A stretch of 64,000 bases of DNA. It comes from Escherichia phage phT4A. The position numbers were made by a program, and so were the translations under genes. The notes below the pieces were generated by a model that had not been told where the DNA came from, made no database searches, and saw nothing but the letters and a program-made list of their open reading frames with translations. The stretch lies in sequence record NC_055712.1; one strand, given 5' to 3'. Position 1 is the stretch's first letter, and each line of letters begins with the position of its first letter. Below are positions 29,540-64,000 of the stretch, in pieces.

Positions 29540-29944
29540 ATGCAACTTGACATCGAAATCACCGCCGAAGATCTCCAGGAACATTTAGACGAAGCGAAAG
29601 CCCGTGTAGATATTCTGGGTATCGATGAAGGCACGGTTAAAATCATCGAAAATTTGGCGGTCACCGAACCAAATTTAGCCCTTGCTATGATGGCGGTTGT
29701 TGAAGGTTTAACACTTGATGAGGTAATTGTCAAGCATGTTGATTCCCGTGGCAACGTAGAACGCCTCAAAGACAGGAAAACCCGTGAGCGTAATGCGTAT
29801 CAGACGACCGGATTAACTAAATCCCAACGTCGCCAGATCGCGCGTCGTGCTCTCAAAACAAAACGTGCTAACCCGTCAATTGCTACTCGCGCACAACGTA
29901 AGCGCAAGAAAGCATTGCGTAAACGTGCTGCACTGGGGCTATAA
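29540..29944 (+). CDS. gp68: gp68 prohead core protein
   Basis: ATG 29540 with GAGG RBS; ~134 aa (T4 141 aa); basic C-terminus. Confidence 0.65.
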   Translation: MQLDIEITAEDLQEHLDEAKARVDILGIDEGTVKIIENLAVTEPNLALAMMAVVEGLTLDEVIVKHVDSRGNVERLKDRKTRERNAYQTTGLTKSQRRQIARRALKTKRANPSIATRAQRKRKKALRKRAALGL

Positions 29945-29946
29945 AT

Positions 29947-30594: not shown

Positions 30595-30597
30595 ATA
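30590..30597 (+). promoter_or_regulatory. T4-type late promoter TATAAATA
   Basis: Exact TATAAATA 30 nt upstream of gp22 ATG. Confidence 0.5.
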
Positions 30598-30626
30598 CAT
30601 TAAACAAAACAACAGGAAAATCAAAA

Positions 30627-31415
30627 ATGCTTAAAGAACAACTGCTGGCGGAAGCCCAGAACCTGGATACTCCGGTCGAGTTAGACAGCATTTTCGAATC
30701 AGTTGAACTTTCTGATGACGTGAAAGCGACATTCACCACTGTATTCGAACAAGCTGTAAAAGCTGGCGCGGCAAAACTCGCTGAATCCCACATTACCCAG
30801 ATCGCGGAACGTTCCGACGAACTGGTCGAAGCTCAGGTAACTGAACGTGCCGCTGAAATCGAAACTAAGCTGTACGAAGATGCTGATAAATATTTTGCGC
30901 ACATTTCCGAAGAATGGCTGAAAGAAAACAAAGAAGCCGTTTCCCGTGACATCAAAGCAGATCTGTTTGAATCCCTGATCATGGGCCTCAAAGAAGTTCT
31001 GGTTGAACATAACGTTGTCATTCCGGAAGAACAGGTTGATGTAGTCGCCGAACTGGAAGACGAACTGACTGAGAATCAGCAGGAAGTTAAAACCCTGTTT
31101 GAAGCAAATCAGGAACTGACCAAAGAAATTTCAGAAATGAAACGCAATGCAGTAGTTTCAGAGAAAACTAAAGGTTTGACCGAATCTCAGGTCGAAAAAG
31201 TAGAATCTCTGATTGAAGGGCTGGAATATTCCGCAACCTTCGAAAATAAACTCAGCGCAATTGTTGAAATGGTAGCAACCAAAGCTGAAAAACCCGTTGA
31301 CGAGTCTGTAAATACTCCGCAAACGAAAGATGACTTTGTTCCGGTAGTCGAAAGTGTTCCGGCAGAGAAATCCAAGATCAATAAATATGTACAAGCGGCA
31401 AAAGCCCTTTCTTAA
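30627..31415 (+). CDS. gp22: gp22 prohead core scaffold protein
   Basis: 262 aa, acidic coiled-coil composition (T4 269 aa); synteny. Confidence 0.8.
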   Translation: MLKEQLLAEAQNLDTPVELDSIFESVELSDDVKATFTTVFEQAVKAGAAKLAESHITQIAERSDELVEAQVTERAAEIETKLYEDADKYFAHISEEWLKENKEAVSRDIKADLFESLIMGLKEVLVEHNVVIPEEQVDVVAELEDELTENQQEVKTLFEANQELTKEISEMKRNAVVSEKTKGLTESQVEKVESLIEGLEYSATFENKLSAIVEMVATKAEKPVDESVNTPQTKDDFVPVVESVPAEKSKINKYVQAAKALS

Positions 31416-31434
31416 TTTCAAAAGGTAAGAAACA

Positions 31435-33003: not shown

Positions 33004-33026
33004 GTTATTGAAAAATAACGATATTA

Positions 33027-33053
33027 AAGGGAACCTTCGGGTTCCCTTTTTCA
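33027..33053 (+). terminator. rho-independent terminator after gp23
   Basis: GGGAACCttcgGGTTCCC followed by TTTTTC. Confidence 0.65.
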
Positions 33054-33057
33054 TTTC

Positions 33058-33065
33058 TATAAATA
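33058..33065 (+). promoter_or_regulatory. T4-type late promoter TATAAATA
   Basis: Exact TATAAATA 24 nt upstream of the endonuclease ATG. Confidence 0.45.
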
Positions 33066-33088
33066 GTGAAAACAATTGAGGCTATATT

Positions 33089-33724
33089 ATGAAACATATT
33101 ATCTACAAAATAACAAATTTGGTTAATAATAAAATTTATGTTGGTGCTCATTCAACAGAAGACATCAACGATTCATACATGGGTTCAGGGGTGGCTATAA
33201 AGGCGGCTCAGAGGAAGTATGGTATCGATAAATTTATAAAAGAAATATTACATATTTTTGATACCCGTGAAGAAATGTATGAAAAAGAAAGAGAGATTGT
33301 TAATCTAGAATTTGTTAATAATCCACATACATATAATATGGGTATCGGTGGTGATGGTGGCCCTATGTTGGGTATGTTTCATTCAGAAGAGAAGAAACAA
33401 GAAATTTCCAAGATTACTAAAGAGAGAATGACAGATGAAGTAAAATCTCGTCTCTCTAAACTTAAAAAGGGTAAACCACAGTCCAAAGAATCCAACAGGA
33501 AGCGCTCAGAGACGTTAAAAGCTAAATATATGAATGGACGTATAGACAGAGAGTATAAACCTCTCACAGAAGCGCACAAGGCGAAATTAGGCCGTTCTGT
33601 ATCGATAGATGGAGTTGTATACTCATCCGGATCGGAGGCGGCAAAATCCCTTAGTATGTCCCACTCTGGTTTAAAATATCGGATTAATAGCGACAAATAC
33701 CCTACCTGGAAATTTGTTGCATAA
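33089..33724 (+). CDS. GIY-YIG homing endonuclease (SegD-like), free-standing between gp23 and gp24
   Basis: 211 aa; canonical IYKITNLVNNKIYVGAHS GIY-YIG motif, NUMOD3-like repeats, C-terminal DNA-binding segment; AT-rich; T4 has segD at the same position. Confidence 0.8.
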   Translation: MKHIIYKITNLVNNKIYVGAHSTEDINDSYMGSGVAIKAAQRKYGIDKFIKEILHIFDTREEMYEKEREIVNLEFVNNPHTYNMGIGGDGGPMLGMFHSEEKKQEISKITKERMTDEVKSRLSKLKKGKPQSKESNRKRSETLKAKYMNGRIDREYKPLTEAHKAKLGRSVSIDGVVYSSGSEAAKSLSMSHSGLKYRINSDKYPTWKFVA

Positions 33725-39697: not shown

Positions 39698-40231
39698 ATG
39701 GCAATTCCTTCTGTAACAATTAGCGCCAACAAAAACGAACTTTTGATTGGTGAAACTTTGACCTTAGAGGTTAAAAATACTGAACTAGATCCGGGTGATG
39801 TGTTTCTGGCCTACCGTTGGCAAAAAGATGGTGTAGATATTCCAGGCGCAACCGCCGATACTTACACAACTACGGTTGACGGTACAACTGCTGGTGATTA
39901 TACCCTGATCTTAAAACACGGTGCTGATGAAGAATCAGCAACAGAAACCACGTCAGATACAATCACCGTGACCACTTATTCTGATGATCTCGTTTCTAAA
40001 TGGACGGTTCACCCGATTCCGTGGCGTGATACCAGCTTTACCCCGATCGGTTATTGGGTACTTGATGAAATTCTGTATCAGAAAGCACAGGGTAAAGATT
40101 GGAAAACTGATTATGCTGATTACAAGTATAGTGAGGAAGTACAAACGATCCTGAAAGCGTTCATGGAAAACGGTGAATGTGAGATCCAGGATTCACGAAA
40201 CGGCTATATTCATAAAATGAGTGAAATCTAA
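39698..40231 (+). CDS. Ig-like domain protein (possible virion decoration protein)
   Basis: 177 aa; N-terminal Ig-like segment (LAYRWQKDGVDIPGATADTYTT...GDYTLILKHGADEE) resembling the wac C-terminus; C-terminal domain paralogous to the next gene (HPIPWRDTSF); late promoter. Confidence 0.45.
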   Translation: MAIPSVTISANKNELLIGETLTLEVKNTELDPGDVFLAYRWQKDGVDIPGATADTYTTTVDGTTAGDYTLILKHGADEESATETTSDTITVTTYSDDLVSKWTVHPIPWRDTSFTPIGYWVLDEILYQKAQGKDWKTDYADYKYSEEVQTILKAFMENGECEIQDSRNGYIHKMSEI

Positions 40232-40530: not shown

Positions 40531-41049
40531 ATGAATACACTTCTTTTTGATTTCGACGACACTTTAGCAGAATTTTCTCAGACTTTTTATGATAAGTTCG
40601 GTGTACGTCCGGAAGGAACGCCAAAAGAACGATATGACGAAATGGCGGCTTCTTTGGTGCGTACTGATTTTTATAAAAACCTTCCCCGTATTCAGGCTGG
40701 GATTGACCTCCTTCAATGGAGTTTCCAACGCCGAATCGGTGATCCTGCTACTTTGCTGCTTCGCGCGGAAGCGGTCAGCCCTCTTTGGGTTATGAAAGAA
40801 AAACTGAACTATACAGATAAGATTTGCGCTGAACTGGGGATCCCTCGTCTCGATTTTAGTCGCATTGACTATCCGGAACAGTTCGCAGAACATGCCTATC
40901 GTGGTGTTCTGATTTCCCGCAACCAGAAACATCTTGAAATCTGGAACAATTCTCATCTAGCTAATAAAGTTCCTGGTATTTTCCTTGCGGAAACCCTGGA
41001 AGAAAATATTCAGCTAGTCACGGAAGCGCTTGCAAAGGCTAATCAATAA
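40531..41049 (+). CDS. HAD-superfamily 5'(3')-nucleotidase-like protein
   Basis: 172 aa; motif I LLFDFDDTLAEF; paralog of the convergent 41082 gene (TDFY(K/E)NL(P/E)xI). Confidence 0.5.
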   Translation: MNTLLFDFDDTLAEFSQTFYDKFGVRPEGTPKERYDEMAASLVRTDFYKNLPRIQAGIDLLQWSFQRRIGDPATLLLRAEAVSPLWVMKEKLNYTDKICAELGIPRLDFSRIDYPEQFAEHAYRGVLISRNQKHLEIWNNSHLANKVPGIFLAETLEENIQLVTEALAKANQ

Positions 41050-41050
41050 C

Positions 41051-41083
41051 AAAAAAGGGAACCGCAATGGTTCCCTTTCTTTT
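41051..41083. terminator. bidirectional rho-independent terminator
   Basis: A-run, GGGAACCgcaatGGTTCCC, T-run; between convergent HAD paralogs. Confidence 0.6.
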
Positions 41084-41546
41084 ACAATCTTTTTAATTCA
41101 TCAAGCGCTGTTTTCTTATCACCAACAAAGAGGATTGCTTTACCTCCTGCTTTTCTGAAAGGCAACACCGCTTTTGCCCGATCGTCAAACAGAATTCCTT
41201 TACCAGCGAATGCTGCTTTTTCATGGCTACTTTTAACGTAGTGGAATTCTGGAACGTAACCCAATACTTTTTGTAATGCTTTACGTTTTTGTTCGGCAAC
41301 ACCGTCAGAATTGAATTTACCGACACTGGTTAGTATTGCTACATCACCAAGTGTTCTTAAATGATGGAATAATTCAAATCCTTCTTTGATTGGTTCCAGA
41401 TTTTCGTAGAAATCAGTTTTGGCAATTTTTGCTTTGCACTTTTTCAACTCATCTTCTGTCATCATAGAGGGTTCGCCATACATTGGCACAAATGAACCTT
41501 CCCAGTCGAACAATACACCATCCATATCAAAGAAAAACTTATTCAT
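41082..41546 (-). CDS. HAD-superfamily 5'(3')-nucleotidase-like protein
   Basis: 154 aa; motif I FFFDMDGVLFDW. Confidence 0.5.
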   Translation of the reverse strand: MNKFFFDMDGVLFDWEGSFVPMYGEPSMMTEDELKKCKAKIAKTDFYENLEPIKEGFELFHHLRTLGDVAILTSVGKFNSDGVAEQKRKALQKVLGYVPEFHYVKSSHEKAAFAGKGILFDDRAKAVLPFRKAGGKAILFVGDKKTALDELKRL

Positions 41547-41595
41547 ATCAATTCCTCAGTTTGTGTATGCATACTATAATGTTTAATCATTAATG

Positions 41596-42435
41596 TCAAC
41601 CCCAAGTGTCAGTTTTCGGTGCGTATGCTGCAACTTTAGCCACAATTTCCTTATCCAGTTCAGCTACAGATTTCTGAGGCTTACCACGGGCTTTAACTTT
41701 GATGTAGTTTGACTTAACAACAAACATCCCTTTGTTACTTGATTTCTTGATCTCGCTATCAACACCAACTTTGTTAAAGCTGATCCAAATGTCGCCGTCC
41801 ATATACTGTTTAAGAGAATCACCCATGTTCAGGATCTTCGCCATAGTAAGGGCCGCGCCTTCGTGGGTATCCATGAGAATTTCTTTAGGAACTACACGAT
41901 CGCGTTTCTGGTTCTGCTGCATAGCAATATGCACATCGTTCATAACCCATACGATATGTACGTTTTCTTTTTTGTATCCCAGCGTTTCGACATCACGTGC
42001 GATGCTTGCCAGCTTGCTCATGCCTTTTAACGTTACGTCAAAGATGAGGTTAGGTTTACGATCTTCTGGTGCTGCCATAATACCGGAATAAACACGGTTT
42101 TGGTTTTTGTTGGAAATGTTGAAAACGTCGGCGATCACATGATGGAGGGTAGATACGTTTTCTGGGTTTTTGAGGTTCATTGTTTTGACATCATGACCCG
42201 TTTGTTTCTTGATCTCTGCTGCGAGTTTATCGCTACCCATTACAAGTTTTTTCAGGGCGTCAACGTCCAGGGTAATACCTTCGATGCCTAGCAGTTTTTC
42301 CAGTGTGAATCCTTTACCGGAACCAGCACCGCCAGCCAGAATAACAACCTGACCGAACTTAGGATAAGCACGGCCCCCGAAGGTGATCAGCGCTTCGGTT
42401 AAGGTGCTTTCTGTGAATTGTTTAAATGACTTCAT
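41596..42435 (-). CDS. P-loop NMP-kinase-like protein
   Basis: 279 aa; ILAGGAGSGKGFT resembles the adenylate/NMP kinase P-loop GxPGxGKGT; function inferred from motif only. Confidence 0.4.
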   Translation of the reverse strand: MKSFKQFTESTLTEALITFGGRAYPKFGQVVILAGGAGSGKGFTLEKLLGIEGITLDVDALKKLVMGSDKLAAEIKKQTGHDVKTMNLKNPENVSTLHHVIADVFNISNKNQNRVYSGIMAAPEDRKPNLIFDVTLKGMSKLASIARDVETLGYKKENVHIVWVMNDVHIAMQQNQKRDRVVPKEILMDTHEGAALTMAKILNMGDSLKQYMDGDIWISFNKVGVDSEIKKSSNKGMFVVKSNYIKVKARGKPQKSVAELDKEIVAKVAAYAPKTDTWG

Positions 42436-42549: not shown

Positions 42550-43425
42550 ATGAAAATCAATTTACATCGCTTCATTGTAGAATTTTCCCGCGACCGCGAC
42601 ATGGACTCTTTCAACTACTACTCCCGTGAAATTGAAGATCGTTTTGCGGCTCATGTTGGGTTCCGTCGCCACCATACTCCTAAAATGCGCCCTGACCACG
42701 ATCCGAAGTATAGCCCTATCACATGGCAAGCCCCGATCAATGGTTACGTTGAAGGGATCCGGATCATGACTTTTAACGCGATGTATGGAAACGCTTTGAT
42801 CCATATTGCACGTGAGAAAAGGGCAGAATTCCCTAACGGCTGGCGTATTGATGAAGTGATTCAAACCCTTATGCAGTTACGACGTGAATACAAAGCTGGT
42901 ATGTGTCTGCGTAATGAACAGTATCCGATGTATAAAACGTATGCCTATATCTCTAAGCATCTAATTAATTCCATGTTTTACATCGTTGGTAATCATGGTT
43001 CCGCTATAGATATCGGTTCTTATGAAATCGTGGCTTATGCTCGCGAACAAGGAAAGGCCGCTGCACTGAAAATCATTGAATCTGGTGCTATCATTCTTAA
43101 CCATCGCATTGATACTATTGCTTACTATGGCGATCAGGTTGAGGTTGAAGGCGTACACCATGAACGATTCAACAAAGCCGTATTTGCTAAAAATGGTTAT
43201 GCTTATGGTAATGACATTATAACTTCTGCTATTCCTTTCGTTCGTCTAACTGTTGAAGGATTTGGAGAAAGGTTGCCTTATAAACTGTCAGAAGCTCAAA
43301 TGTGTGCGGCTGCTGAAAGAATCGCCAAAAAGCGGAAAATGTATACCGATGAATACCTGGCGTATGTCAACAAGACAAAAGAAGATGTAGATCGAGAAAT
43401 TTCTTGCATGGATTTGTGCCTTTGA
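42550..43425 (+). CDS. hypothetical protein
   Basis: 291 aa; no family recognised. Confidence 0.5.
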   Translation: MKINLHRFIVEFSRDRDMDSFNYYSREIEDRFAAHVGFRRHHTPKMRPDHDPKYSPITWQAPINGYVEGIRIMTFNAMYGNALIHIAREKRAEFPNGWRIDEVIQTLMQLRREYKAGMCLRNEQYPMYKTYAYISKHLINSMFYIVGNHGSAIDIGSYEIVAYAREQGKAAALKIIESGAIILNHRIDTIAYYGDQVEVEGVHHERFNKAVFAKNGYAYGNDIITSAIPFVRLTVEGFGERLPYKLSEAQMCAAAERIAKKRKMYTDEYLAYVNKTKEDVDREISCMDLCL

Positions 43426-43457
43426 TATAATGTAAGCATCTTTTAAAGGGAGGATGC

Positions 43458-43775
43458 ATGAAAACGATACATTGCAGAAATGAAAACGTTGTTTACTATC
43501 ACGGTTCGTGTACTGCTGCTGGTATTGAAAGCATGTTATTGCCTCCCTGTGATTCTGATACTCTGTCTGAAAAAGGCAGGAAGAAAAATTTAGACCGTGT
43601 TTTCTTTACCGCTGATATCGGGTTAGCTCGTATATACGCTGGAAGGGCCGCGCGTTCTATAGGTGGGGAACCTGTTCTGTACAGGGTTGTGTGTCCGGTT
43701 GATGTTGTATGCATGAACGAAGACAAAGGCGCGAGCGTTTACCATGCAGCATGGGCGTTTTGTGAGGAATTATGA
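43458..43775 (+). CDS. small ADP-ribosyltransferase-like protein (Arr-like candidate)
   Basis: 105 aa, strong GGGAGGA RBS; motif series YYHGS ... VFFTAD ... LYRVVCPVD resembles the HGT ... YFSA ... YxVEP pattern of Arr-type minimal ADP-ribosyltransferases; recalled similarity, not searched. Confidence 0.3.
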   Translation: MKTIHCRNENVVYYHGSCTAAGIESMLLPPCDSDTLSEKGRKKNLDRVFFTADIGLARIYAGRAARSIGGEPVLYRVVCPVDVVCMNEDKGASVYHAAWAFCEEL

Positions 43776-43948
43776 ATGATAAAGTGTTGGCGTATCTCGT
43801 TTTCTTGCTGGGATATCGCTTAGAAGTGATGGGCGCGTATTCATCAATGTATGGTGATTTAACGGCTATCTGGATGGTTGGGTTAGGGGTTGCTTTTACA
43901 TTCCTTTCCTTTGCAATTGTTAATGAATCGGAAAAGGATATTGTATGA
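43772..43948 (+). CDS. small membrane protein (two predicted TM helices)
   Basis: 58 aa, ATG overlaps preceding stop and its stop overlaps next ATG (ATGA); hydrophobic VLAYLVFLLGY and LTAIWMVGLGVAFTFLSFAIV; below ORF-track cutoff. Confidence 0.4.
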   Translation: MNDKVLAYLVFLLGYRLEVMGAYSSMYGDLTAIWMVGLGVAFTFLSFAIVNESEKDIV

Positions 43949-44271
43949 AACTATATCATGTGATCTACTCTGGTGTTTTAGGCATTGACAAACAAATGTT
44001 AGTTGATGTAATGTGTAAAAAACTCGATGAGCGAATTGGAACCCGATACAAAAATCATGTATCGGAAAGTATCTTCATCAACGTTGACCATCCAAATGAC
44101 ATGGAAGAAATGGTTAATACTCTTGATGATCAGCAGATCCCGTTTGTTGACAATTTCAACATGAGCGCTGGAGTGTATACGGTAGTAACTTTTGTTCTAA
44201 AAAATGTTGACAGCCGAAACGATAGCGTGTTGAATGTAGTTGCAAAAATCGATTCTACCAAAGGAAAATAA
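43945..44271 (+). CDS. hypothetical protein
   Basis: 108 aa; translationally coupled. Confidence 0.5.
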   Translation: MKLYHVIYSGVLGIDKQMLVDVMCKKLDERIGTRYKNHVSESIFINVDHPNDMEEMVNTLDDQQIPFVDNFNMSAGVYTVVTFVLKNVDSRNDSVLNVVAKIDSTKGK

Positions 44272-44272
44272 T

Positions 44273-44629
44273 ATGAAAATTGTACACCGTAGCATTTCCG
44301 AACTGTCTCAAGCTGAAAAAGTGCAAATTCATTTCAAATTCAATGATTTGCGTAAAGGTTATGCCGAAATTGCCCGTGAACATGGGTTAGATAACGGCGA
44401 TATTTACCAGGTAGTACAGGAAATTGAACGTATCCGCGCGTTCCGTTCTGCAAATCTCCCTGTTAAAAATGCAATGCGCCGCGAAGCGATCGAAATCCAT
44501 CGTAAGCGTGTGTACAATTTAGAACGTGCTAAACGTCCGATGAAGAAAGAAAAGAAACCTCGTCCGTTTAAACGTGAACATCTTAACACCTCTATGGCGC
44601 TGGCGTTTCAAGATGCGGGGATTATCTAA
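44273..44629 (+). CDS. hypothetical protein with basic C-terminus
   Basis: ATG 44273 with GGAAA RBS; 118 aa. Confidence 0.5.
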   Translation: MKIVHRSISELSQAEKVQIHFKFNDLRKGYAEIAREHGLDNGDIYQVVQEIERIRAFRSANLPVKNAMRREAIEIHRKRVYNLERAKRPMKKEKKPRPFKREHLNTSMALAFQDAGII

Positions 44630-45153
44630 TGCGTAAATCTGCGATGGATCGTTGGGCTAGTATTGCTACTTCAAACGTAAAACCAAATCAAGCCGCACCT
44701 GATGTAGAAGCGGTTCGTAAAGCAAAAGAACCTGAGATCGTGGCCCTTAGCCCTGAACTCATCGAGCATCGCCGTCGTGCGTCTGCTATTGAACTGGATC
44801 TGCGTATTGCGCGTTCATATAATCTCAAGCATGAACACGCCGCAAAGAACAACCATTCTTTTGACCTTACTCTGGAAGATTGGAAAGTGTTGATGACAAC
44901 TGAACGTTGTCAGTATTCCGGCAAGATGTTTAGCAATAAACCAGGTAGCCCATATGCCCGTACAATGGAACGTATTAATCCACGTCTGGGATATACACAA
45001 GAAAATACAATAGCGGTTATCAACGCCGCTAATGCCGAAAAATCACAGCTTGATGCATTCGTTAAGGGTGATGTCATTCTGGATGAAGTAAAAGTGAAGT
45101 TGCTGCGTAAAGCACTTTATCAAGTCGAAAAACGTGTGAAAATGAAAGGTTAA
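44629..45153 (+). CDS. hypothetical protein with degenerate HNH-like segment
   Basis: 174 aa; CQYSGK...MERINPRLGYTQENTIAVINAANAEKSQ resembles the HNH spacing but lacks the His/Cys ligands. Confidence 0.45.
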   Translation: MRKSAMDRWASIATSNVKPNQAAPDVEAVRKAKEPEIVALSPELIEHRRRASAIELDLRIARSYNLKHEHAAKNNHSFDLTLEDWKVLMTTERCQYSGKMFSNKPGSPYARTMERINPRLGYTQENTIAVINAANAEKSQLDAFVKGDVILDEVKVKLLRKALYQVEKRVKMKG

Positions 45154-45156
45154 ATT

Positions 45157-46176
45157 ATGTTTAAGAAATATTCTTCTCTGACTAACCATTATGAAGGTAA
45201 GTTCATCAATGGTGTAATTATGAACGGGCTTACTGGCGGTGTGTGGGTTGCACGTGAAAAGATCCACGGTGCTAACTTTAGTTTTATCACCGATGACGGT
45301 ATTACCGTTACCCCCGCAAAGCGTACTGATGTTGTTAAGCCAGCCGAAGATTTTTATGGCTGTTCAGCAGTAGTTGCAAAGTATTCCCCAGGGATCCGTA
45401 AGATGTGGGAAACCCTCAAAAAGACCGGAACTTATGATGATTTGGTTATTCAAGTCTACGGTGAATTTGCGGGGCGCGGTGTACAGAAAGATGTTGATTA
45501 CGGCGAAAAAGATTTCTATGTATTCGATATCCGTGTAAATGGTGAATTCCTTCCGGATAACCTGTGCTCGCTGATCTCTCGATCTCATGGCCTGAAAATG
45601 GCCCCGCTGTTGGGATATGGTACTTTTGAAGAGATCAAAGAACTGCCGATCACGTTTGAATCTGTTGTGAATAAAGCAAATAGCGGCATTGGTAGCGATA
45701 ATACAGTATATGGTGAATTCGTATATCCTATCATGGAAGTTGAAGAGGGCAACATTGCAGAAGGTTTTGTAATGAAACCTGTTTCACCTGCTTTTATGCC
45801 AAACGGTGAACGCGTTGCAATCAAATGCAAAACAACCAAATTCACTGAGAAGAAAGCGAAGAAAGCAACCCGCTTTAATGCTCCGGTTTCATTGTCAGAA
45901 AAAGACAAAAACCAACTCGATGAGTTTGTTTGTTACCTTACAGAGAACCGTGTGAAAAACGTTCTTTCGAAACTGGATCTGGCTTCGATCACTGCGAAAG
46001 ATTTTGGTCGCATTATGGGCTTAACTGTTCAGGATGCTATCGAAGAAATCAGCCGTAATCACGGGCCTTTCCTCGAACAGTTCGAAGACCCAGCAATGGC
46101 TAAGAAGCTGTTTGTAACCGAAGCCCAAAACATGATTCGCCCTGTATGGGGCAAAATCCTGAACCATGAATTTTAA
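45157..46176 (+). CDS. rnlB: RNA ligase 2 (RnlB)
   Basis: 339 aa; MFKKYSSL...GGVWVAREKIHGANFS (ligase motif I K-x-H-G), KDFGRIMGLTVQD; close to T4 Rnl2 (334 aa). Confidence 0.88.
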   Translation: MFKKYSSLTNHYEGKFINGVIMNGLTGGVWVAREKIHGANFSFITDDGITVTPAKRTDVVKPAEDFYGCSAVVAKYSPGIRKMWETLKKTGTYDDLVIQVYGEFAGRGVQKDVDYGEKDFYVFDIRVNGEFLPDNLCSLISRSHGLKMAPLLGYGTFEEIKELPITFESVVNKANSGIGSDNTVYGEFVYPIMEVEEGNIAEGFVMKPVSPAFMPNGERVAIKCKTTKFTEKKAKKATRFNAPVSLSEKDKNQLDEFVCYLTENRVKNVLSKLDLASITAKDFGRIMGLTVQDAIEEISRNHGPFLEQFEDPAMAKKLFVTEAQNMIRPVWGKILNHEF

Positions 46177-46747
46177 TCAGATTCTGGTTGATGCAAAAGC
46201 GGCTACCCTGATCGGTAGCCGTAAACCTCCTGAACGTATCGCAAACATTGCTGTTAAAATCGGACGTGCTTTGAACGAACGCGGGATCAGGGCTTATTCT
46301 GGCGGCGCTCCTGGTATGGATAGTCACTTTCTGTTTGACTATAGTCCGGATAACAGATGTATAATCCTTCCTGATAACGGGTTTAACGGCCTTTTCTCAA
46401 ACGGAAAGGATATCATCGACTTTCGAGATTTAAACACACAGAAAGCTGCTGACGAAGCCAGAAAGGTAGCAGGTAACTTCGATACACAGAATGAATACGT
46501 TCAAAGAAGGTATGCGCGAAACACGATTCAAGTTCTTCGTGAAAATCTTGACAATCCAACTGATTTTGTTTTATTTTGGGCGGAAGAACGTGAAGGATGT
46601 GTTAAAGGTGGAACCGCGATCGCTGTAAGATTGGCTAGGTTGTACAGGGTTCCATGTTTCAATCTCTTCAAAGAAAGTGTATTGAACGATGTGTGTGATA
46701 CGTTAGGGATCAATATCAAACCCCCAACGTTGGATTTTTTATGGTAA
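46166..46747 (+). CDS. DprA/SLOG-like Rossmann-fold protein
   Basis: 193 aa; GSRKPP ... YSGGAPGMDSHF ... CIILPDNG matches the DprA/Smf/SLOG motif pattern (GSR, SGGAxGxD). Confidence 0.45.
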   Translation: MNFNQILVDAKAATLIGSRKPPERIANIAVKIGRALNERGIRAYSGGAPGMDSHFLFDYSPDNRCIILPDNGFNGLFSNGKDIIDFRDLNTQKAADEARKVAGNFDTQNEYVQRRYARNTIQVLRENLDNPTDFVLFWAEEREGCVKGGTAIAVRLARLYRVPCFNLFKESVLNDVCDTLGINIKPPTLDFLW

Positions 46748-47259
46748 TTGAACATGCGCCCTTACTTCGTGAAACATACGAAAGATGGGCTGTTAATAAC
46801 GCAATAGGTGAAAATATGATTCATGTACGTAGTATCGGTGCTGACGGCGAAACTCCAGTAGAAGGCCGATCGCCCACTCTCGCAGAACGAGCAAGAGAAA
46901 TTATCAACGATCAGAATGCTAAGATGATCGAACATGCGCGGGATACAATCACAAAAGGTGTTCTGAAACACGCGACACAACAAAACCTTATCTATGATAT
47001 GAAGCACGATATCGGCTCTTGTCTGGGTATTGAATGTACTCGCTATGCATTCCAACGAGTTTCTGAATGGTTGGAAGAAGAAGGGCTAAAATTCGATACA
47101 GAAGAAAAACGCAACGCCGCTAAGATCACAAATTCTCTGGCTAGTAAGTACAATCAAACGTATAGAAACCAGGAAGAACGTGAAGTGTTCGGTTTCAAAA
47201 TTCCTGAAAGGAAAACAGATCGCCGTGTAAGTGAATTCACTTTTTACATTAGTTGGTAA
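46741..47259 (+). CDS. hypothetical protein
   Basis: 172 aa. Confidence 0.5.
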   Translation: MVIEHAPLLRETYERWAVNNAIGENMIHVRSIGADGETPVEGRSPTLAERAREIINDQNAKMIEHARDTITKGVLKHATQQNLIYDMKHDIGSCLGIECTRYAFQRVSEWLEEEGLKFDTEEKRNAAKITNSLASKYNQTYRNQEEREVFGFKIPERKTDRRVSEFTFYISW

Positions 47260-47266
47260 AAAGGTG

Positions 47267-47295
47267 TTGACGGGGGTTGGTTATAGTAGTATTCT
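47267..47295 (+). promoter_or_regulatory. sigma70-type promoter TTGACG-17-TATTCT
   Basis: Intergenic, upstream of the 47337 gene. Confidence 0.35.
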
Positions 47296-47336
47296 AACTC
47301 CCGTAGACAAGACACTAACTCAGAAGGATAAACATC

Positions 47337-47597
47337 ATGGAAATCGTAATGAAAGCAACTTATGCTGGATACTGCCTGGAAGCAAAAGGTGTTGCTAACA
47401 ATGGTAAAGGCTTACGGGCCAATGTTGAAGCAATGCTGGATGAATTACATGCAATGTACGAATATGACAACGTAGCGGGTAGTGTTCTTATCCAGGCGTT
47501 GGAAGTCGATGGTGTTGATTGTGCTGGTTGGTGGGATGCTTACATTGACTACAACGATAACCGGGTTTACCTGTTGAGCAACAAAGATTATTTCTAA
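47337..47597 (+). CDS. hypothetical protein
   Basis: 86 aa; AAGGA RBS. Confidence 0.5.
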   Translation: MEIVMKATYAGYCLEAKGVANNGKGLRANVEAMLDELHAMYEYDNVAGSVLIQALEVDGVDCAGWWDAYIDYNDNRVYLLSNKDYF

Positions 47598-47606
47598 GGA
47601 ACCATT

Positions 47607-48056
47607 ATGAGCGATGAAGCTGAGGCTTTAGAAGATTGGGCTGATTTTGATGACGAAGAAGACGGTGAATATTTCTGCGTTAATCGTGGTGCTTATAAAG
47701 ACCGTTTAGAACTCCGTAAACTTTTATCGGGTTCCTCTCAAATATCAGGATCCAAACGAAAAAGTAGTAAACAAAAAGTTCAGTATAGTGATGGTTCTGT
47801 ACGTGATGAAACTGTTGTTGCTGAATTCCGTGGTCGGGTTATCACAAAAGAAAGACAAATTGATGTAAAGAACTTGTATGAAGTGGCTAAGGCTGCTAAA
47901 ATAGGTTCTGTGATTGTTTGCCCTGTGTGCAAAGAAAAACACACAAAGACAACGTATCACAAAGTTTTCTGTTCGAATGGCAGAAAAACCAGTAAGGATT
48001 GTAAGTCTAAATATCACAATACAATCCATCCCGAACGACTGGATCGGGTATTTTAA
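47607..48056 (+). CDS. hypothetical protein with acidic N-terminus and C-terminal Cys-rich zinc-ribbon-like region
   Basis: 149 aa; CPVCKEKH...CSNGRKTSKDCKSKYH. Confidence 0.5.
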   Translation: MSDEAEALEDWADFDDEEDGEYFCVNRGAYKDRLELRKLLSGSSQISGSKRKSSKQKVQYSDGSVRDETVVAEFRGRVITKERQIDVKNLYEVAKAAKIGSVIVCPVCKEKHTKTTYHKVFCSNGRKTSKDCKSKYHNTIHPERLDRVF

Positions 48057-48083
48057 AATAAACCTAAAACGTGGAGTACGTTT

Positions 48084-49517
48084 ATGAACAACAAAACTTT
48101 CGAAGAACTGAACAGCATCATCACTTCCGTAGATTCCTATAAGGTTTCTCACTGGTCGCAATATCCAACTGGCTCCGAAGAGGCGCTGTTTTATATTGAA
48201 TCTCGTGGTGGTAAATTTGATCAAGTAGTTACGGCTGGCTGTAACCGCCTTGCGCAAATCCTATCACGTCCGGTGACTATGGAAAACGTAGATTTTGCTA
48301 ATCGGTTGTACAAAATGCACTTTGGGCGCGAAATCTTCAACTACAAAGGTTGGAAAGAAATTGCAGAACTGGGTTACATCCCTCTTGAATTCAGAGCGAT
48401 TCCGGAAGGAACCCCAGTAGCGGTTAAAAATCCGGTTGCAACTTTCCATGCTGGGAAAAATGCGCTGTGGTTAGCAGGACACGTAGAAACCCTGGCGATC
48501 AGGGGAGTATGGTTCCCTTCAACCGTAGCAACTCTATCCCGCGAATGTAAAAAAGTGTTGAAGAAATATCTCAAGAAAACCTCCGATCTCGAAGGTGAAG
48601 CATTTGATATGGTATTACGTACCCGTTTGCATGACTTCGGCGCACGTGGAACCTCTTCTGCTGAATCTGCTGGTATTGGTGGCCTTGCTCATCTGTATAA
48701 CTTCCTCGGTACTGATACCGTAGAAGCGCTGATTATGGCTATCTCTCTGTTTGAAGATTGTCAGAAAGCGTTTGATGATGGTGAAATGGCGGCTGGTATT
48801 TCAATTCCTGCTCGCGAACATTCCACTACCGTTTCTTACGGCAAAGAAAACGAAGACCTTGCATACAAAAACAGTATTGAGATCTTCGGTGAAGGGATGT
48901 ATGCATGTGTGTATGATTCCTGGGATTTTAAAGCGGCGGTTCGCCGTATCGCAGAATATAAAGATTCTATTCTTTCTAAGGGCGGTACTCTGGTAGTTCG
49001 TCCGGATTCTGGCGATATGGTAGACAATATCATGTACGCTCTTGAAGAACTGGGCCGTATCTTTGGCTATACAGTGAACTCAAAAGGGTATAAAGTACTA
49101 CACCCAGCAGTAAGGATCATTCAAGGCGATGAAATTCATGGCCCTGAAACAATCAATCGGGTGTTGAACTGGATGGAGTCTAACCGTTGGGCGTCTGAAA
49201 ACATCGCGTTTGGTATGGGCGGCGGATTGCTTCAAGAAGTTACCCGCGACACTCAAAAATATGCGATGAAAATGTGCGCAATCAAAATTAACGGTGTGTG
49301 GACTGGTGTGTATAAATGTCCAAAAGGCGCTGAATGGAAAAAGAGTAAAAAAGGGTTGTTAATGACTATCACTGATGGTGTTAACTTTAAAACCATTGAT
49401 ACTCTGGAACAGAAAGTGCCGGAAGGCTGGAAAGATGCTATGATCACATACTATGTCAACGGAAAGATTACTGCCCGTGACACTTTAGAGGAAATTAGGA
49501 ACCGTGCCGGGATTTAG
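48084..49517 (+). CDS. nadV: nicotinamide phosphoribosyltransferase (NadV / NAMPT family)
   Basis: 477 aa; NAMPT-type motifs (RLHDFGARGTSSAESAGIGGLAHL, GMGGGLLQ). Confidence 0.8.
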   Translation: MNNKTFEELNSIITSVDSYKVSHWSQYPTGSEEALFYIESRGGKFDQVVTAGCNRLAQILSRPVTMENVDFANRLYKMHFGREIFNYKGWKEIAELGYIPLEFRAIPEGTPVAVKNPVATFHAGKNALWLAGHVETLAIRGVWFPSTVATLSRECKKVLKKYLKKTSDLEGEAFDMVLRTRLHDFGARGTSSAESAGIGGLAHLYNFLGTDTVEALIMAISLFEDCQKAFDDGEMAAGISIPAREHSTTVSYGKENEDLAYKNSIEIFGEGMYACVYDSWDFKAAVRRIAEYKDSILSKGGTLVVRPDSGDMVDNIMYALEELGRIFGYTVNSKGYKVLHPAVRIIQGDEIHGPETINRVLNWMESNRWASENIAFGMGGGLLQEVTRDTQKYAMKMCAIKINGVWTGVYKCPKGAEWKKSKKGLLMTITDGVNFKTIDTLEQKVPEGWKDAMITYYVNGKITARDTLEEIRNRAGI

Positions 49518-49806
49518 TATCCGCAAAAACGACAAAGGAACCGTGATTTTCTATGACAACATGCCCCTTGTAGCTCGCAAGGGGCTTTTTGCTAAAATCG
49601 CTGGGTATTCCTTTAAACTGGAAGAAGTCAACGACGAAACACTAAAAGAGATCGTAAGAATTGCCTTACAGTTAAGAGGTAAGAAAGACGAACAAAAAGC
49701 TATTGACATGATCAATAAATTGGGTGAAACTCAATGCTTCATAGTGAATCGTGGTTACAAGTACGATACCATTGCAAAATTTGAAAAAGGGCTTTGTGAA
49801 TTATGA
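49504..49806 (+). CDS. hypothetical protein
   Basis: 100 aa; GTG start with AGGAA RBS, overlaps nadV end. Confidence 0.4.
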   Translation: MPGFSIRKNDKGTVIFYDNMPLVARKGLFAKIAGYSFKLEEVNDETLKEIVRIALQLRGKKDEQKAIDMINKLGETQCFIVNRGYKYDTIAKFEKGLCEL

Positions 49807-50654
49807 GTTATTATGGTGTGATCCCATACACAGGAAACAAGCAAAAGCTACTTCCTGAACTGTTCAAATTATTTCCAGACAGAAACAGCTATATGCGATT
49901 CATCGACTGTTTTTGTGGTGGTTTGAGTGTGTCGCTAAACGTCCCTAAACCCGTTCTAAGCAACGATTACGATCGGACGTTGATTGATATGTATAAGCGC
50001 CTTCAAATGCTTCCTGACCTCTCTCCTGTGCGAGAATTGATTAAACAGCATGGTCTGGGTAAGAACGAGAAAGAAGCGTATCTCACATTTCGTGATGCGT
50101 ATAATAAGAACAAGGATCCTCTATGGCTCTACGTTCTGATCCTTCATTCGTTTAGTAATGTTAATCGAACCAACGATAAAGGCGATTTTAACGCCAATTT
50201 TGGTTGTAGAACGTTGAATGATTCTACCGTTAAACGGTTTGAACACTTCAAAAATAATGTTCGGGGGATTGAATTCTCTAGCGCATCGTTTAAGGATCTT
50301 GATATCTGTTTGAATGATTTTGTGTACTGCGATCCGCCGTACCTGATCACTGATGCAGTTTATAACAAGTTCTGGAACGAAGAACGCGAGCATGAATTAT
50401 ATGATTTTCTCGATAATTTAAACTCTGATGGTATCAAGTTTGGTTTATCAAACGTGACACATCATGCAGGAAAGCAAAATGATATCCTGATCGAGTGGAT
50501 GCAAAAATATAATGTGCATAACCTCGATAAAAAGTATCTGTTAGGCCAGCATACTGATTCTTACGAACAAAATAAAACGCAAGAAGTCTACGTGTGCAAC
50601 TACCAGAAACGCGACGTAAATACATACCCTGAAACACTGGATGACTTAATGTAA
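49803..50654 (+). CDS. dam: DNA adenine methyltransferase (Dam, GATC-specific)
   Basis: 283 aa; extensive similarity to T4 Dam (YTGNKQKLLPEL, FCGGLSVSLNV, DPPY motif VYCDPPYLIT). Confidence 0.9.
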   Translation: MSYYGVIPYTGNKQKLLPELFKLFPDRNSYMRFIDCFCGGLSVSLNVPKPVLSNDYDRTLIDMYKRLQMLPDLSPVRELIKQHGLGKNEKEAYLTFRDAYNKNKDPLWLYVLILHSFSNVNRTNDKGDFNANFGCRTLNDSTVKRFEHFKNNVRGIEFSSASFKDLDICLNDFVYCDPPYLITDAVYNKFWNEEREHELYDFLDNLNSDGIKFGLSNVTHHAGKQNDILIEWMQKYNVHNLDKKYLLGQHTDSYEQNKTQEVYVCNYQKRDVNTYPETLDDLM

Positions 50655-50662
50655 GGTAACAT

Positions 50663-50938
50663 ATGTTTAAGATTTTTGGTTATATCCCTTCTGTTTACAA
50701 TTGCGCTCCATGCCTGAATTCTAAACGTCTCCTGGACGCAAAACGAAAAGAATATGAGTTTGTTTCTGTAGCCGATGAAAAAGACGCAGACGGCAAACCG
50801 ATCCTGAATGAAACGGTCATTTCTGAACTCGAAAGCCTGTTAGGTACTCGTAGACTGACCATGCCTCAAATTTTCCACGATGGTAAGCACATCGGCGGCT
50901 TTGACCAACTGCGTGAGTACGTTCGCACGTTGGGATAA
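50663..50938 (+). CDS. nrdC: NrdC thioredoxin/glutaredoxin
   Basis: 91 aa; CAPC active site; MPQIFHDGKHIGGFDQLREY matches T4 NrdC. Confidence 0.85.
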   Translation: MFKIFGYIPSVYNCAPCLNSKRLLDAKRKEYEFVSVADEKDADGKPILNETVISELESLLGTRRLTMPQIFHDGKHIGGFDQLREYVRTLG

Positions 50939-50969
50939 ATATTAACACCTTTATTTGATTGGTGTTATT

Positions 50970-51452
50970 ATGCTCACTAAACGTATTACTAAGAAAGATT
51001 ATCCATCCATTAAACAAGCTCTTTTTGAACAGCAAAACGGCTTGTGCGCGTTATGTGGTCGCCCTTTAGAGGGTGACCTTGAAAAGCATCACCTTGACCA
51101 TGATCATGCTCTATCTGGCTCTAATGCCGGACGTGTGCGCGGCCTCCTATGTAACCTATGCAACGGTACAGAAGGTATTGTAAAGCACAAATTTAATCGT
51201 TCTGGTCTGGTTTCCCGTGATGTTGATTACATCGAATGGCTAGAAAGCCTGGTAGCATACCTCAAACGCGACTATTCACAAAACCGTATGCACGACAAAT
51301 TTATACCCGATAAGGTTAAATGGTTTACACGCCTGACTAAATCGGATATGATAGCCGAAATGATTTCTATGGGCTTTGAGTACTCAGAAACTGAGGATCG
51401 CAAGGCTTTAGCAAAGAGCTATAGAAGACAATTAATGAAGGCAACCAAATGA
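50970..51452 (+). CDS. gp49: endonuclease VII (gp49, Holliday junction resolvase)
   Basis: ATG 50970; QQNGLCALCGRPLE...HHLDHDHALSG...VRGLLCNLCNGTEGIVKHKFNRSGL matches T4 endo VII. Confidence 0.88.
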   Translation: MLTKRITKKDYPSIKQALFEQQNGLCALCGRPLEGDLEKHHLDHDHALSGSNAGRVRGLLCNLCNGTEGIVKHKFNRSGLVSRDVDYIEWLESLVAYLKRDYSQNRMHDKFIPDKVKWFTRLTKSDMIAEMISMGFEYSETEDRKALAKSYRRQLMKATK

Positions 51453-51711
51453 AAGTAGAAAAANNNNNNNNNNNNNNNNNNNNNNNNNNNNNNNNNNNNN
51501 NNNNNNNNNNNNNNNNNNNNNNNNNNNNNNNNNNNNNNNNNNNNNNNNNNNNNNNNNNNNNNNAAAACGTAGGTTATGGACAGGATATACCCTGGAGGCT
51601 TTACAGGCCGACCCAGAACGTTCTAAGCTACTTCCTTACATTGATGTTCTGATTGATGGTAAGTATGAAAAAGATTTGCCAACAGAAAAAGCCGTTTCGC
51701 GGTTCAGATAA
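51449..51711 (+). CDS. nrdG: NrdG anaerobic ribonucleotide reductase activase (fragmented by assembly gap)
   Basis: ATG 51449 overlaps gp49 stop; post-gap frame encodes LWTGYTLEALQADPERSKLLPYIDVLIDGKYEKDLPTEKAVSRFR, matching the NrdG C-terminus; the radical-SAM CxxxCxxC region is missing in the gap. Confidence 0.55.
51464..51563. other. assembly gap (100 N)
   Basis: Run of N inside nrdG. Confidence 0.95.
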
Positions 51712-58943: not shown

Positions 58944-59215
58944 TTTAGCAAAAATTCAATTCCTACGTAGCACAGTTGCGGGGAAAACACCTACTACAAG
59001 TCAGCTTGCAGATGGTGAACTGGCGATCAACATGGCTGATTATGCCATTTACACGAAAAATGGTTCTTCGATCGTTCAGTTAGCGGGTAAAGGTATCCCA
59101 GAAACAAATACCAAAAAATTAACAGTAAATGGGCCTAGTGCTCTTAATGATACCGTTACCGTAGCGGAAGGTAAAACTATTACTTTCACCAACGCGGATT
59201 TGAGCGGGGGTATGG
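58944..59215 (+). repeat. fibre 5' module, copy 1 (near-identical to 63446-63717)
   Basis: About 250 nt nearly identical (2-3 mismatches), then divergent but homologous. Confidence 0.85.
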
Positions 59216-62200
59216 TTCGTCATATCACTGGTAAAAACGCGCTTAATGATGGTTGGTACATCGGTTCTGGTGGTGAGAGCAATAAAGGGTTTTTAGAAAT
59301 CGGTACAATTGATGACGGTGATGAAGAGATCCGTTTCGTTTCCCGTGGTTCTGGTGATACTGTTCGTCGTACTCTGAAACTTATTGATTCCGGTGGTAAC
59401 ACTCGCGTACCAGGTAACATCTATATTGATGAAGCTATGGGCGGTGGTGGTTCTGCTTTTATTTCAAAAAACAAAGCATATTTCGGTGCTGGCGGTGCTG
59501 ATATCTATATGCGTAACACTGCTGGCGGTGCGACAAATCAGTTAACGATCACTGATGGCGGTGAATTGCTGTTTCAAGCAAAACCTGTATACTGGGACGG
59601 TCGTAAACCGACTTTAACCGAATTGGGGATCGGGCGGGTTGAAAACGCGCGTCAAATGCAGCAAGACAATTGGCCTATAACTACAGGTAATGAAACCCGA
59701 TGGGTTAAAGTTGCTCTTTTAAAAGATCCTGGCTCAGGTCATAGTCGCTTGCAACTGATGGTGACTAACGGCGGTAACTATGGTTCTACACGCGGATCGT
59801 TCGATTTTATCGATTGTTCTGCTCGTAGTATGCCTTCAACATTAACGGCTGCAAATATTCGTTCTTATCTGCAAATTCGTCGATTGGGCGATCCGGCAAT
59901 GGATGACACTAACCAGATGCGTTATAGTTTGGTTCGCACATCCGAAGGTTTGGAATTGTGGTTTACTCAAAGATCGTTCATCGGTAGTACAAAAATTGCT
60001 CTGTTATCTACGGCTGGCGTGACTGAATATTATATTCCTAGTGGATATACATCACAAACAACCGCTCCGGATGGTTTGATCGAGAGTAAGCCTATTCGTA
60101 TCTATGACGAAATGAACAAACCTAGCCTTGACGATGGTACTGATGGTATTCTGTCTGTTGCTAAAGGTGGTACAGGCGCAAGTACAGCGGCTGCTGCTCG
60201 CACAAACTTAGGTTTGGGTACTGCTGCAACCCGTGATGTTGGTACAGGTTCCGGACAAGTAATGCTTGTTGGTGCTTACGGTTTAGGCGGTAAGGGTACA
60301 TCATATAGCATCGCAAATGCTCGCGACTTCCTGAAACAACTGCGTACTGATGGTTCTCAGTTCATGCGAAATACGCTTGGTACTGACATTAACTATGGTA
60401 TGGGCGCAAGTTTTTATAGTTCCGTATCAGATGTTCATGCAGTGATCTCGGTTGATTGGAATACTGGTCGCGTTAAAGTTGGTGCAACTAATGATACTAA
60501 CCTTAACTCAGATACAGGAAGAATCAACTTCCAGGAACTGTACGGTACTGCATTTAAACCGACTCCGGATGACGTAGGGGCTGTTGCACGTGCTGGTGAT
60601 ACGATGTCTGGTGATCTGACGATCTCTAAAGTGTCGCCTGGTTTCCATTTGAATGCTGAGAGCGGAAACTCCGTAATTTGGTTTAAGTATAAAGGGGTTG
60701 AAAGTGGTGCTGTGTGGGCGTTGCCTAATACTGCCTCTTCTGGTGAAGTTCGCATTCGTGCCAGAACGTCGGGCGGAACGACTGGGGGCGAATTCTCATT
60801 TAAATCAGACGGTACATTTACATCACCTGGTAATATCAATATTACTAGCGGCGCTTTCAACGGTAAAAGTGTCAATACTCAGTATGCGAACTTTAATAAC
60901 ACAAGTTCAACAACAACCGAACAAACCGTTTCTATTAGTGGTTCGCAGCACACTCCTCTGTTACTGAATAGACCGACTAACTCGAACTTGTCTATCGGGT
61001 TTAAACTTTCCGGAATGAACATGAAACGTTTGGGTATCGATGTAAACGGTGATATTCGTTACGGTGAAGCCGAAAACCAGACACAAAACGCATGGCTGTT
61101 GACTTCGGATACCATAAACAGATGGAGTGTTAACTTCGGGCGTGATATTAACGTTGCAGGTGTAGTTAATTCAACTGGTGGATTTACTGGCCCTGTTACT
61201 GCATATGATTTGACCGGGGTAACTCAGGATCTTGATGCTTTAACATTGAACAATGCCGAACCAGGACATATTAAAGTTTATTCGTGCCGTAGTATGGGTG
61301 GCGGTGATAACATCACCAATAAACCTTCCGGCGTAGGTGGTAACTTTATTGTTATCGTTGAATGTCTCCGTAAAGTCGGCGATACTGATTACACTAACCG
61401 TCAAGTATTACGCGCATCGGACAATAAACGCAGTTGGGAACGTTGGTTTACTGTTAGCGGTACTGCTAAAGCCTGGACACCGTGGAGAATGAACGTTGTT
61501 AGCGGAAACGATGACGATGTATCATTTAAATCTGTTACCACAACTACAGGAAACCTGAACAGTGGAAACGATCTGATTGTTGCGAACAACGCTCGCGTAG
61601 GTGGCAACTTAGGGTTAGGTGGTGCTTCTTCCACGACATACACTGATAAAGGTGTTGTGATTGGTAACGGTAGTGCGCTGTTAGAATCCACTGATGGTCG
61701 CATGATTATTGGTAGTTCTGGTGCTGGTCGTGCTGTTGAATTGCGTCCTGGTGGCCCAACTCAAACCAACAACGGGATCAAAGTGACTGCTACCTCTGGA
61801 AGTGGTGGTGATACTGCGATCGAGTATGCGCAAGGGGTGAAAATCCGGGCAAATAACGGTGGTGCGTTGATTATTTCTGCTAAAGCTGGACAAACGATTT
61901 ATCTACGTCCTCAAGGAGATACATCCAGCACAAACGAAACAAGGATTGATTCTAGTGGTAACATGATAGTTAATGGTAATATCAGTGCAAACGGAAATAT
62001 GTCTGCTACTGGTACGTTAACTGTTTCTGGTGCTACTACATTAAACAACACATTAACGGTTAATAATGTAGGGCCAATCGAGAAACGGGGGATCAGGACG
62101 TATACAGAAGGTTCTGTTACTGTCAACGAAACCGACGGCATTACGATGTTTGGTAATGGCACAATTCATGGCACAATGCGATTAGTTGAGAGAGTGAATA

Positions 62201-63266: not shown

Positions 63267-63296
63267 AAGGCTACCTATATGGTAGCCTTTTTGTTG
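63267..63296 (+). terminator. rho-independent terminator
   Basis: AAGGCTACCtatatGGTAGCCTT followed by TTTGTTG. Confidence 0.6.
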
Positions 63297-63339
63297 TATG
63301 CTAAATATACCTATAGCAACCTAAGAAGAGTCTTATAAA

Positions 63340-64000
63340 ATGGCTNNNNNNNNNNNNNNNNNNNNNNNNNNNNNNNNNNNNNNNNNNNNNNNNNNNNNNN
63401 NNNNNNNNNNNNNNNNNNNNNNNNNNNNNNNNNNNNNNNNNNNNNGGCTGATTTAGCAAAAATTCAATTCCTACGTAGCACAGTTACGGGGAAAACACCT
63501 ACTACAAGTCAGCTTGCAGATGGTGAACTGGCGATCAACATGGCTGATTATGCCATTTACACGAAAAATGGTTCTTCGATCGTTCAGTTAGCGGGTAAAG
63601 GTATCCCAGAAACAAATACCAAAAAATTAACAGTTGATGGGCCTAGTGCTCTTAATGATACCGTTACCGTAGCGGAAGGTAAAACTATTACTTTCACCAA
63701 CGAGGATTTAAGTGGTGGAATAACTCGTCATATCGTTGGCAAATGCGCCACTAATGATGGTTGGTACATCGGTTCCGGTGGTACAAGCAACAATGGTATT
63801 CTTGAAATCGGTACTATTGATGACGGCGTTGAAACCATCCAGATCGTACAGCGCGGCGCAGGCAACGTTGAAGCCAGAAAGTTAGTCTTGCTTGATGGTT
63901 CGGGTAATACGAATCTTCCTGGTGATTTAAGATTAACCACCAATAAAGCTGTTAAAATTTCGAATGGAAGCACTCTTACACTAGAAATGGGCGTAGGTGC
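63340..64000 (+). CDS. second gp37-like distal tail fibre gene (partial; interrupted by 100-N run; open to window end)
   Basis: ATGGCT before the gap, then GGCTGATTTAGCAAAAATTCAATTCCTACGTAGC = (M)ADLAKIQFLRS..., same N-terminal module as 58944 copy, then a divergent sequence. Confidence 0.7.
63346..63445. other. assembly gap (100 N), possibly spurious
   Basis: Flanks share GGCT; joining them gives ATG GCT GAT TTA ... in frame with the T4 gp37 N-terminus. Confidence 0.85.
63446..63717 (+). repeat. fibre 5' module, copy 2
   Basis: See 58944-59215. Confidence 0.85.

Follow-up and report, generated by a model that had tools for sequence, protein, structure and literature searches.

The gene nadV, at 48084..49517 (+ strand) of the 64-kb stretch of DNA analysed here (the window), very likely encodes one half of an ordinary KVP40-type, two-enzyme NAD+ salvage pathway (NARP2) rather than an orphan enzyme, with its partner, NatV, encoded beyond the window. 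The apparent absence of the partner reflects where the window ends. Judging from close relatives, natV is almost certainly also present on this phage's genome, and the NadV/NatV pathway is itself already known, such that the finding is an already described NARP2 pair. An earlier note on this DNA had recognised a full-length NAMPT-family gene, which is borne out by matches to Pfam, NCBIfam, PHROG and solved structures; had reported that the window contains no NMNAT, NatV-type Nudix or Prs partner, in agreement with negative tblastn searches; and had judged the P-loop protein at 41596-42435 not to resemble a PRPP synthetase, consistent with its Zeta-toxin-type fold (PF06414). It had left three options for the partner, namely that it lay outside the window, in an assembly gap, or was of a different type. 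The first is almost certainly correct, as natV lies approximately 24 kb off-window in Raoultella phage Rpl1, and the other two lack support. The accompanying implication that NadV might be an orphan, or unusually partnered, is likewise unsupported, as a canonical natV was found in both of the near-identical genomes examined from end to end, from which its presence in the genome studied here is deduced.

The window can be assigned, on sequence similarity, to a Slopekvirus, a T4-like Straboviridae phage of Klebsiella and Raoultella with a genome of approximately 174 kb. More than 100 complete Slopekvirus phage records match the 8 kb surrounding nadV at 95-99.6% identity; their hosts are Klebsiella, Raoultella and related bacteria, and those records that were examined are classified as Straboviridae; Slopekvirus. 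Across its entire 64 kb, the window is colinear with Rpl1 (OK631812.1, 174,270 bp), the closest of the complete relatives examined, at 92-99% identity, and approximately 99% overall, running along that genome from 151662 to 174269, then through the permuted end and onwards from 1 to 46489. Baseplate, neck, terminase, tail and head genes are followed by an early-type block that includes nadV, and then by the long tail fibres. The sequence is interrupted four times by exactly 100 N, at 5338, 51464, 58844 and 63346, and the window is therefore a scaffold rather than a finished sequence.

The nadV gene is intact, with a GGAG Shine-Dalgarno sequence (48073..48076, +), read directly from the DNA, 8 nt upstream of an ATG start, and encodes a Nampt-type nicotinamide phosphoribosyltransferase of 477 aa. 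The family architecture is present at full length, with the NAMPT_N domain (PF18127, 2.6e-22) preceding the type II phosphoribosyltransferase barrel (NAPRTase, PF04095, 6.9e-41). With NCBIfam NF006629, for which the curated threshold is 405 bits, the protein reaches 463.7 bits, and it is assigned to PHROG 448 ('nicotinamide phosphoribosyl transferase') at 7.6e-166. Its best matches among solved structures are the NAMPTs of Xanthomonas (2.9e-104) and humans (6e-87, 40% identity), with the alignment extending end to end over residues 8-475. In human NAMPT, Tyr18 contributes to the dimer interface and, with Phe193, to stacking; Asp219 specifies nicotinamide; His247 is autophosphorylated; R196, R311, D313, G353-D354, G383-G385 and R392 bind phosphate or PRPP, with R392 also at the dimer interface; and the lysines bind phosphate. 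A phmmer alignment against 3dgr_A found the human residues D16, Y18, H191, F193, R196, D219, E246 and H247 to be retained in NadV, as were R311, D313, G353, D354, G383-G385, R392, K400, K415 and K423, with the phage counterparts including Y19, F185, R188, D211, H246, R306, D308, G348-D349, G379-G381 and R388. Hence all the catalytic and substrate residues checked against human NAMPT are conserved, making it very unlikely that NadV is inactive, and the protein is an ordinary, intact nicotinamide phosphoribosyltransferase by these criteria of similarity, with its enzymatic activity being a prediction. The resemblance to cellular NAMPTs (human PBEF/visfatin; Xanthomonas campestris, PDB 7yqo) therefore covers the full-length alignment, the active site and the dimer-interface residues Y18 and R392, whereas NadV differs in being encoded by a phage, and in having an alanine in place of human S275, which is an inhibitor contact and not a catalytic residue.

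The partner was sought from end to end in two near-identical genomes, those of Rpl1 and Klebsiella phage vB_Ko_K41P2, and natV was found in each. In K41P2 it is locus 80 (48314-49375), annotated as a 'cytidyltransferase' of 353 aa; in Rpl1 it occupies 126663-127721 (- strand), encodes 352 aa (UJP30555.1 equivalent), and is annotated only as a 'hypothetical protein', its product being 96% identical to that of K41P2. The K41P2 protein contains a CTP_transf_like domain (2e-10) followed by a NUDIX domain (9.4e-13) in Pfam, and aligns along its entire length with the models of NCBIfam for bifunctional NMNAT/Nudix proteins (7e-77). The Slopekvirus sequences fall below the equivalog cut-offs of these models, at 259 bits compared to 397, and are therefore diverged members of the family. 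Similarity to NadM-Nudix structures was nevertheless evident, with Synechocystis 2qjo matched at full length (6e-53), and Francisella 2qjt also matched; identity to KVP40 NatV was 40.3% over 350 aa. Both the Rpl1 and K41P2 proteins carry the expected motifs, with FHYGH at the HxGH position, LSSTNLR at the SxTxxR position, and a Nudix box of GHKNGNETFLDCAIRELLEE; the equivalents in the aligned KVP40 protein are FHNGH, ISATDFR and GHKHEKETFLDAAIRELQEE. As the window begins at position 151662 of Rpl1, natV lies approximately 24 kb past its left edge, at a locus conserved with K41P2, with 72-99 kb separating it from nadV if the map is taken as circular. This locus adjoins a conserved 915-nt ORF and is on the thymidine-kinase side of the cytosine methyltransferase gene. 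The two genes recur in parallel across the phage collection, with 110 records containing NatV at an identity of at least 95%, and 108 containing NadV at an identity of at least 99%. Phages of Citrobacter, Enterobacter and Cronobacter contributed a further band of matches at 60-80% identity, comprising 64 records for NatV and 67 for NadV. Both genes were seen in K41P2, Rpl1, KLB13 and Roth27, and a scan of IMG/VR with a 40-mer from nadV returned three contigs, 96-99% identical to the window, one of which, of 174 kb, also carried a 40-mer from natV.

Within the 64-kb window, by comparison, no ORF resembles an NMNAT, a NatV-type Nudix protein, Prs/Adps, NadR or PnuC. A tblastn search with Slopekvirus NatV at E<=10 returned only a single noise match from the window, and KVP40 NatV, two phage Adps (Prs-like) proteins, KVP40 NadR and KVP40 PnuC all failed to match it. 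The search for other types of partner was extended to relatives, with the FelixO1 and BPS10C Adps sequences (E<=1) matching nothing in the window, the complete genome of K41P2 or the two-thirds of Rpl1 covered, and KVP40 PnuC matching nothing in either the window or K41P2. The sole match to KVP40 NadR was the 39-aa HxGH region of natV, and NadR is absent from both the window and K41P2. The failure to find PnuC and NadR means that NARP3, in which a PnuC-like transporter is combined with a NadR-like enzyme (PMC13464706), is excluded as well; this resembles the NadV/NatV pair in being a NAD+-restoring pathway of Enterobacteriaceae phages, but employs other enzymes, homologues of which are absent from the window and the K41P2 genome.

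In the pathway as it would operate in this phage, NadV is predicted by homology to condense nicotinamide and PRPP to form NMN. NatV, a bifunctional NMN adenylyltransferase/Nudix protein of the ADP-ribose pyrophosphatase type, would then convert NMN and ATP into NAD+, while its Nudix domain would be expected, again from its homologues, to act on ADP-ribose. The pair should thereby raise NAD+ in infected cells, and may neutralise defences that deplete NAD+, among them Thoeris, DSR and SIR2-HerA, a putative anti-defence role. These expectations derive from the Vibrio phage KVP40, the NadV-NatV salvage pathway of which is credited to Lee, Li & Miller 2017 (J Bacteriol 199:e00855-16), as cited in PMC11845039. 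The activities of both KVP40 enzymes have been demonstrated biochemically, and, acting together, the two genes eliminated protection by Thoeris and DSR2 and led to higher NAD+ levels during infection (bioRxiv 10.1101/2024.02.11.579819, Osterman et al. 2024). The same study named the pathway NARP2, found it in approximately 1.1% of phage genomes, and reported that, among phages possessing a KVP40-type Nampt, an Nmnat is encoded as well by 94%, but is not detectable in the remaining ~6% (bioRxiv 10.1101/2024.02.11.579819). Additionally, a 2025 survey of Klebsiella phages stated that all Klebsiella Slopekvirus phages encode enzymes converting nicotinamide to NAD+ (PMC11845039).

The Slopekvirus and KVP40 systems share the two-enzyme scheme, the NMNAT and Nudix architecture and motifs, the lack of Adps, and the distant placement of the genes on a T4-like genome. 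With natV at 94507 and nadV at 138214, these genes are 43 kb apart in KVP40, and their separation is therefore normal for the pathway; in T4-like phages they are normally tens of kilobases from one another, and failing to see a partner within 64 kb of a 174-kb genome is no evidence of its absence. The systems differ in their hosts, being Vibrio for KVP40 but Klebsiella and Raoultella for Slopekvirus, and their sequences have diverged. KVP40 also carries NadR and PnuC, which Slopekvirus does not, and its activities have been characterised biochemically, those of the Slopekvirus pair being predicted from sequence. The nadV/natV pair would mark the phage as a NARP2 carrier, predicting resistance to Thoeris, DSR1/2, SIR2-HerA and similar systems, and this predicted resistance to NAD+-depleting defences is relevant to choosing therapeutic phages against Klebsiella. 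Beyond enabling correct annotation, the significance of the finding is small.

Alternative explanations for the lone nadV differ in where, or whether, a partner exists. Were natV to have been lost, then NadV would be a true orphan, making NMN from which host NadR/NadD would complete NAD+ synthesis. There is no NMNAT in the window, the ~6% of KVP40-type Nampt carriers that have no detectable Nmnat provide a precedent, and the assignment of natV to this genome relies on its relatives; yet Rpl1, itself ~99% identical, shares natV with K41P2 at the same locus, the 108 records of NadV agree with the 110 of NatV, and the published survey credits all Klebsiella Slopekvirus phages with the salvage enzymes (PMC11845039), leaving loss of the gene highly unlikely. 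An elaborated version of this reading, in which NadV feeds NMN to host NadR/NadD while the P-loop kinase and two HAD/NT5C nucleotidases at 40531-42435 constitute an unrecognised accessory branch of NAD or nucleotide salvage, is likewise highly unlikely. It is more improbable still that the partner is hidden within one of the four 100-N gaps. This could seem plausible for the second gap (51464-51563), which is only 2 kb downstream of nadV and corresponds to approximately 4.45 kb of Rpl1 (29175-33626), but this stretch contains nrdD, six small ORFs and the start of nrdG. The first gap is equivalent to 544 bp (156997-157540) inside a baseplate-region gene of Rpl1, and the third to 0.9 kb (40901-41823) of tail-fibre connector genes, while no Rpl1 stretch could be defined for the fourth, before which window positions 63267-63345 match Rpl1 46410-46489, upstream of the holin gene. 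In the mapped Rpl1 stretches, covering gaps 1-3, there was no natV, nor any NMNAT, Nudix or Prs gene, such that a gap-hidden partner is ruled out wherever the gaps can be mapped to this baseplate, nrdD-nrdG and tail-fibre DNA. Similarly, NadV proteins of identical sequence occur on 10 other contigs in the same neighbourhood, and none of the called genes within +-10 kb of these had a cytidylyltransferase, NUDIX or Prs-type (Pribosyltran) Pfam domain.

Other alternatives concern the nature of NadV itself. The Namat enzymes of the NARP1 pathway are usually annotated as NAMPT, and hence it was tested whether NadV could be one of these, using ADPR-PP supplied by an unrecognised ADP-ribose pyrophosphokinase, for which the P-loop protein at 41596-42435, lacking an assigned function (PHROG 5268) and any PDB match, might be a candidate. 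The weak use of ADPR-PP by KVP40 Nampt in vitro (bioRxiv 10.1101/2024.02.11.579819) lends this a degree of plausibility. However, NadV is 48.8% identical to KVP40 NadV (E 6e-152), while its identity to two Namat proteins, from FelixO1 and Bacillus phage BPS10C, falls to 27-29%; each of these two is encoded adjacent to a Prs-like Adps gene. Namat enzymes are characterised by an aromatic 'selectivity clamp' helix, GS-X-f-X-f-X-f-TRD, in which f is a small polar residue (PMC12774641, a 2026 structural paper). The corresponding regions of the FelixO1 and BPS10C proteins, GVGSYTYQYMTRD and GVGSYTYAYNTRD, contain the motifs GSYTYQYMTRD and GSYTYAYNTRD. The equivalent region of NadV, GMGGGLLQEVTRD, is instead of the Nampt type, GGGLLQxxTRD, similar to those of KVP40, GMGGGLLQQLDRD, and human NAMPT, with the aromatic clamp GSYxYxYxTRD being absent. 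The P-loop protein is encoded 6 kb from nadV, in the reverse orientation to it, and is Zeta-toxin-like rather than having a Prs fold; the Adps searches described above were negative; and no phage carrying both NARP1 and NARP2 has been found (bioRxiv 10.1101/2024.02.11.579819). NadV shares a NAMPT fold and catalytic core with the NARP1 enzymes (Adps and Namat, as in Bas63, SPbetaL1, FelixO1 and BPS10C), both pathways serving to rebuild NAD+, but is distinguished from them by its low identity, the lack of the aromatic adenine clamp, and the lack of any adjacent or distant Adps/Prs gene. These comparisons place NadV in the Nampt type, within the clade of KVP40 as opposed to that of the Namat proteins, with PRPP rather than ADPR-PP as its predicted substrate. 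The identity, the clamp motif and the Adps search together led to rejection of a NARP1 role, the probability of which is very slight. That NadV is catalytically dead, a possibility mentioned in the earlier note, or repurposed has next to no likelihood: no point was found in its favour, and it was rejected by the mapping of residues onto human NAMPT, in which every position checked was conserved, including H247 and D219. That an identical protein occurs in 449 blocks of the public index of assemblies also fits with strong purifying selection; its neighbourhood was the same in every case, over flanks reaching +-10 kb. Hence the KVP40-type salvage pair, divided between the window and the rest of the genome, is the preferred explanation.

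The immediate surroundings of nadV contain RNA ligase 2, a DprA-like protein, a Dam methylase and proteins without assigned functions, with no NAD enzyme detected among these neighbours by Pfam and PHROG scans. Sigma-70-like promoters were no more frequent than expected by chance in the region 43400-51400 (15 found, against 17.2 expected from shuffled sequence), and nadV is therefore probably transcribed by read-through from upstream genes in the same co-directional array. Terminator-like sites around the gene were also not in excess of chance (9 found, 7.2 expected), and since neither count is elevated relative to shuffled sequence, no expression class is claimed for nadV. The consensus scan did identify a possible intrinsic terminator or RNA hairpin at 49563..49585 (+), with a 9-bp stem containing 6 G-C pairs that is followed by TTTTT, located 46 nt past the nadV stop codon. 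This is inside a downstream ORF (49504-49806, 100 aa) that shares 14 nt with the 3' end of nadV and is annotated as a gene in relatives. The hairpin may represent an intragenic attenuator or terminator. Further downstream, in the region of the second gap, relatives vary through insertions of GIY-YIG/SegE and other homing endonucleases, which may explain the break in the assembly at this point.

The 279-aa P-loop protein (41596-42435, - strand) is a Zeta-toxin-type kinase by its match to Pfam PF06414 (2.8e-7; 30.6 bits, relative to a cut-off of 22.3). It belongs to PHROG 5268, 'unknown', has no sequence match in the PDB or in NCBIfam, and is not needed to explain nadV. It forms part of a small nucleotide-handling cluster at 40531-42435, alongside a 172-aa protein (+) and an NT5C-like HAD nucleotidase (-). 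The 172-aa protein is a '5'-3' deoxyribonucleotidase' in the annotation of relatives, with no Pfam match here, and no link between the cluster and NAD metabolism was found. Outside the window, the K41P2 genome encodes a 157-aa Macro-domain protein at 44406-44879 (Pfam Macro 5e-7, with a weak match to ThsA_Macro), annotated as a 'phosphatase', and a separate 135-aa NudE-type Nudix hydrolase at 27046-27453. These Slopekvirus genes provide further ADP-ribose-handling functions, which might act alongside NadV and NatV.

Differences from Rpl1 and one internal repeat were evident elsewhere in the window. A 204-aa homing endonuclease (PHROG 314, 4e-34) is encoded between neck genes at 20518-21132 (+), where window positions 20523-21197 have no counterpart in Rpl1, the matching interval of which (172625-172692) is only 67 bp. 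The Hoc-like head-decoration gene at 39698-40231 (+) encodes 177 aa, compared to 353 aa with Ig-like domains in Rpl1, and a 527-bp stretch corresponding to Rpl1 17162-17689 is missing; both lengths occur among contigs with an identical NadV. Finally, past the fourth gap, the 5' end of the distal long-tail-fibre gene (58944-59325) appears again at 63452-63833, in the last piece of the window, where it is 91.6% identical to the first copy and in frame as a fibre N-terminus. This duplication could be an artefact of scaffolding, stem from a mixture of phages in the population, or belong to a further fibre gene.
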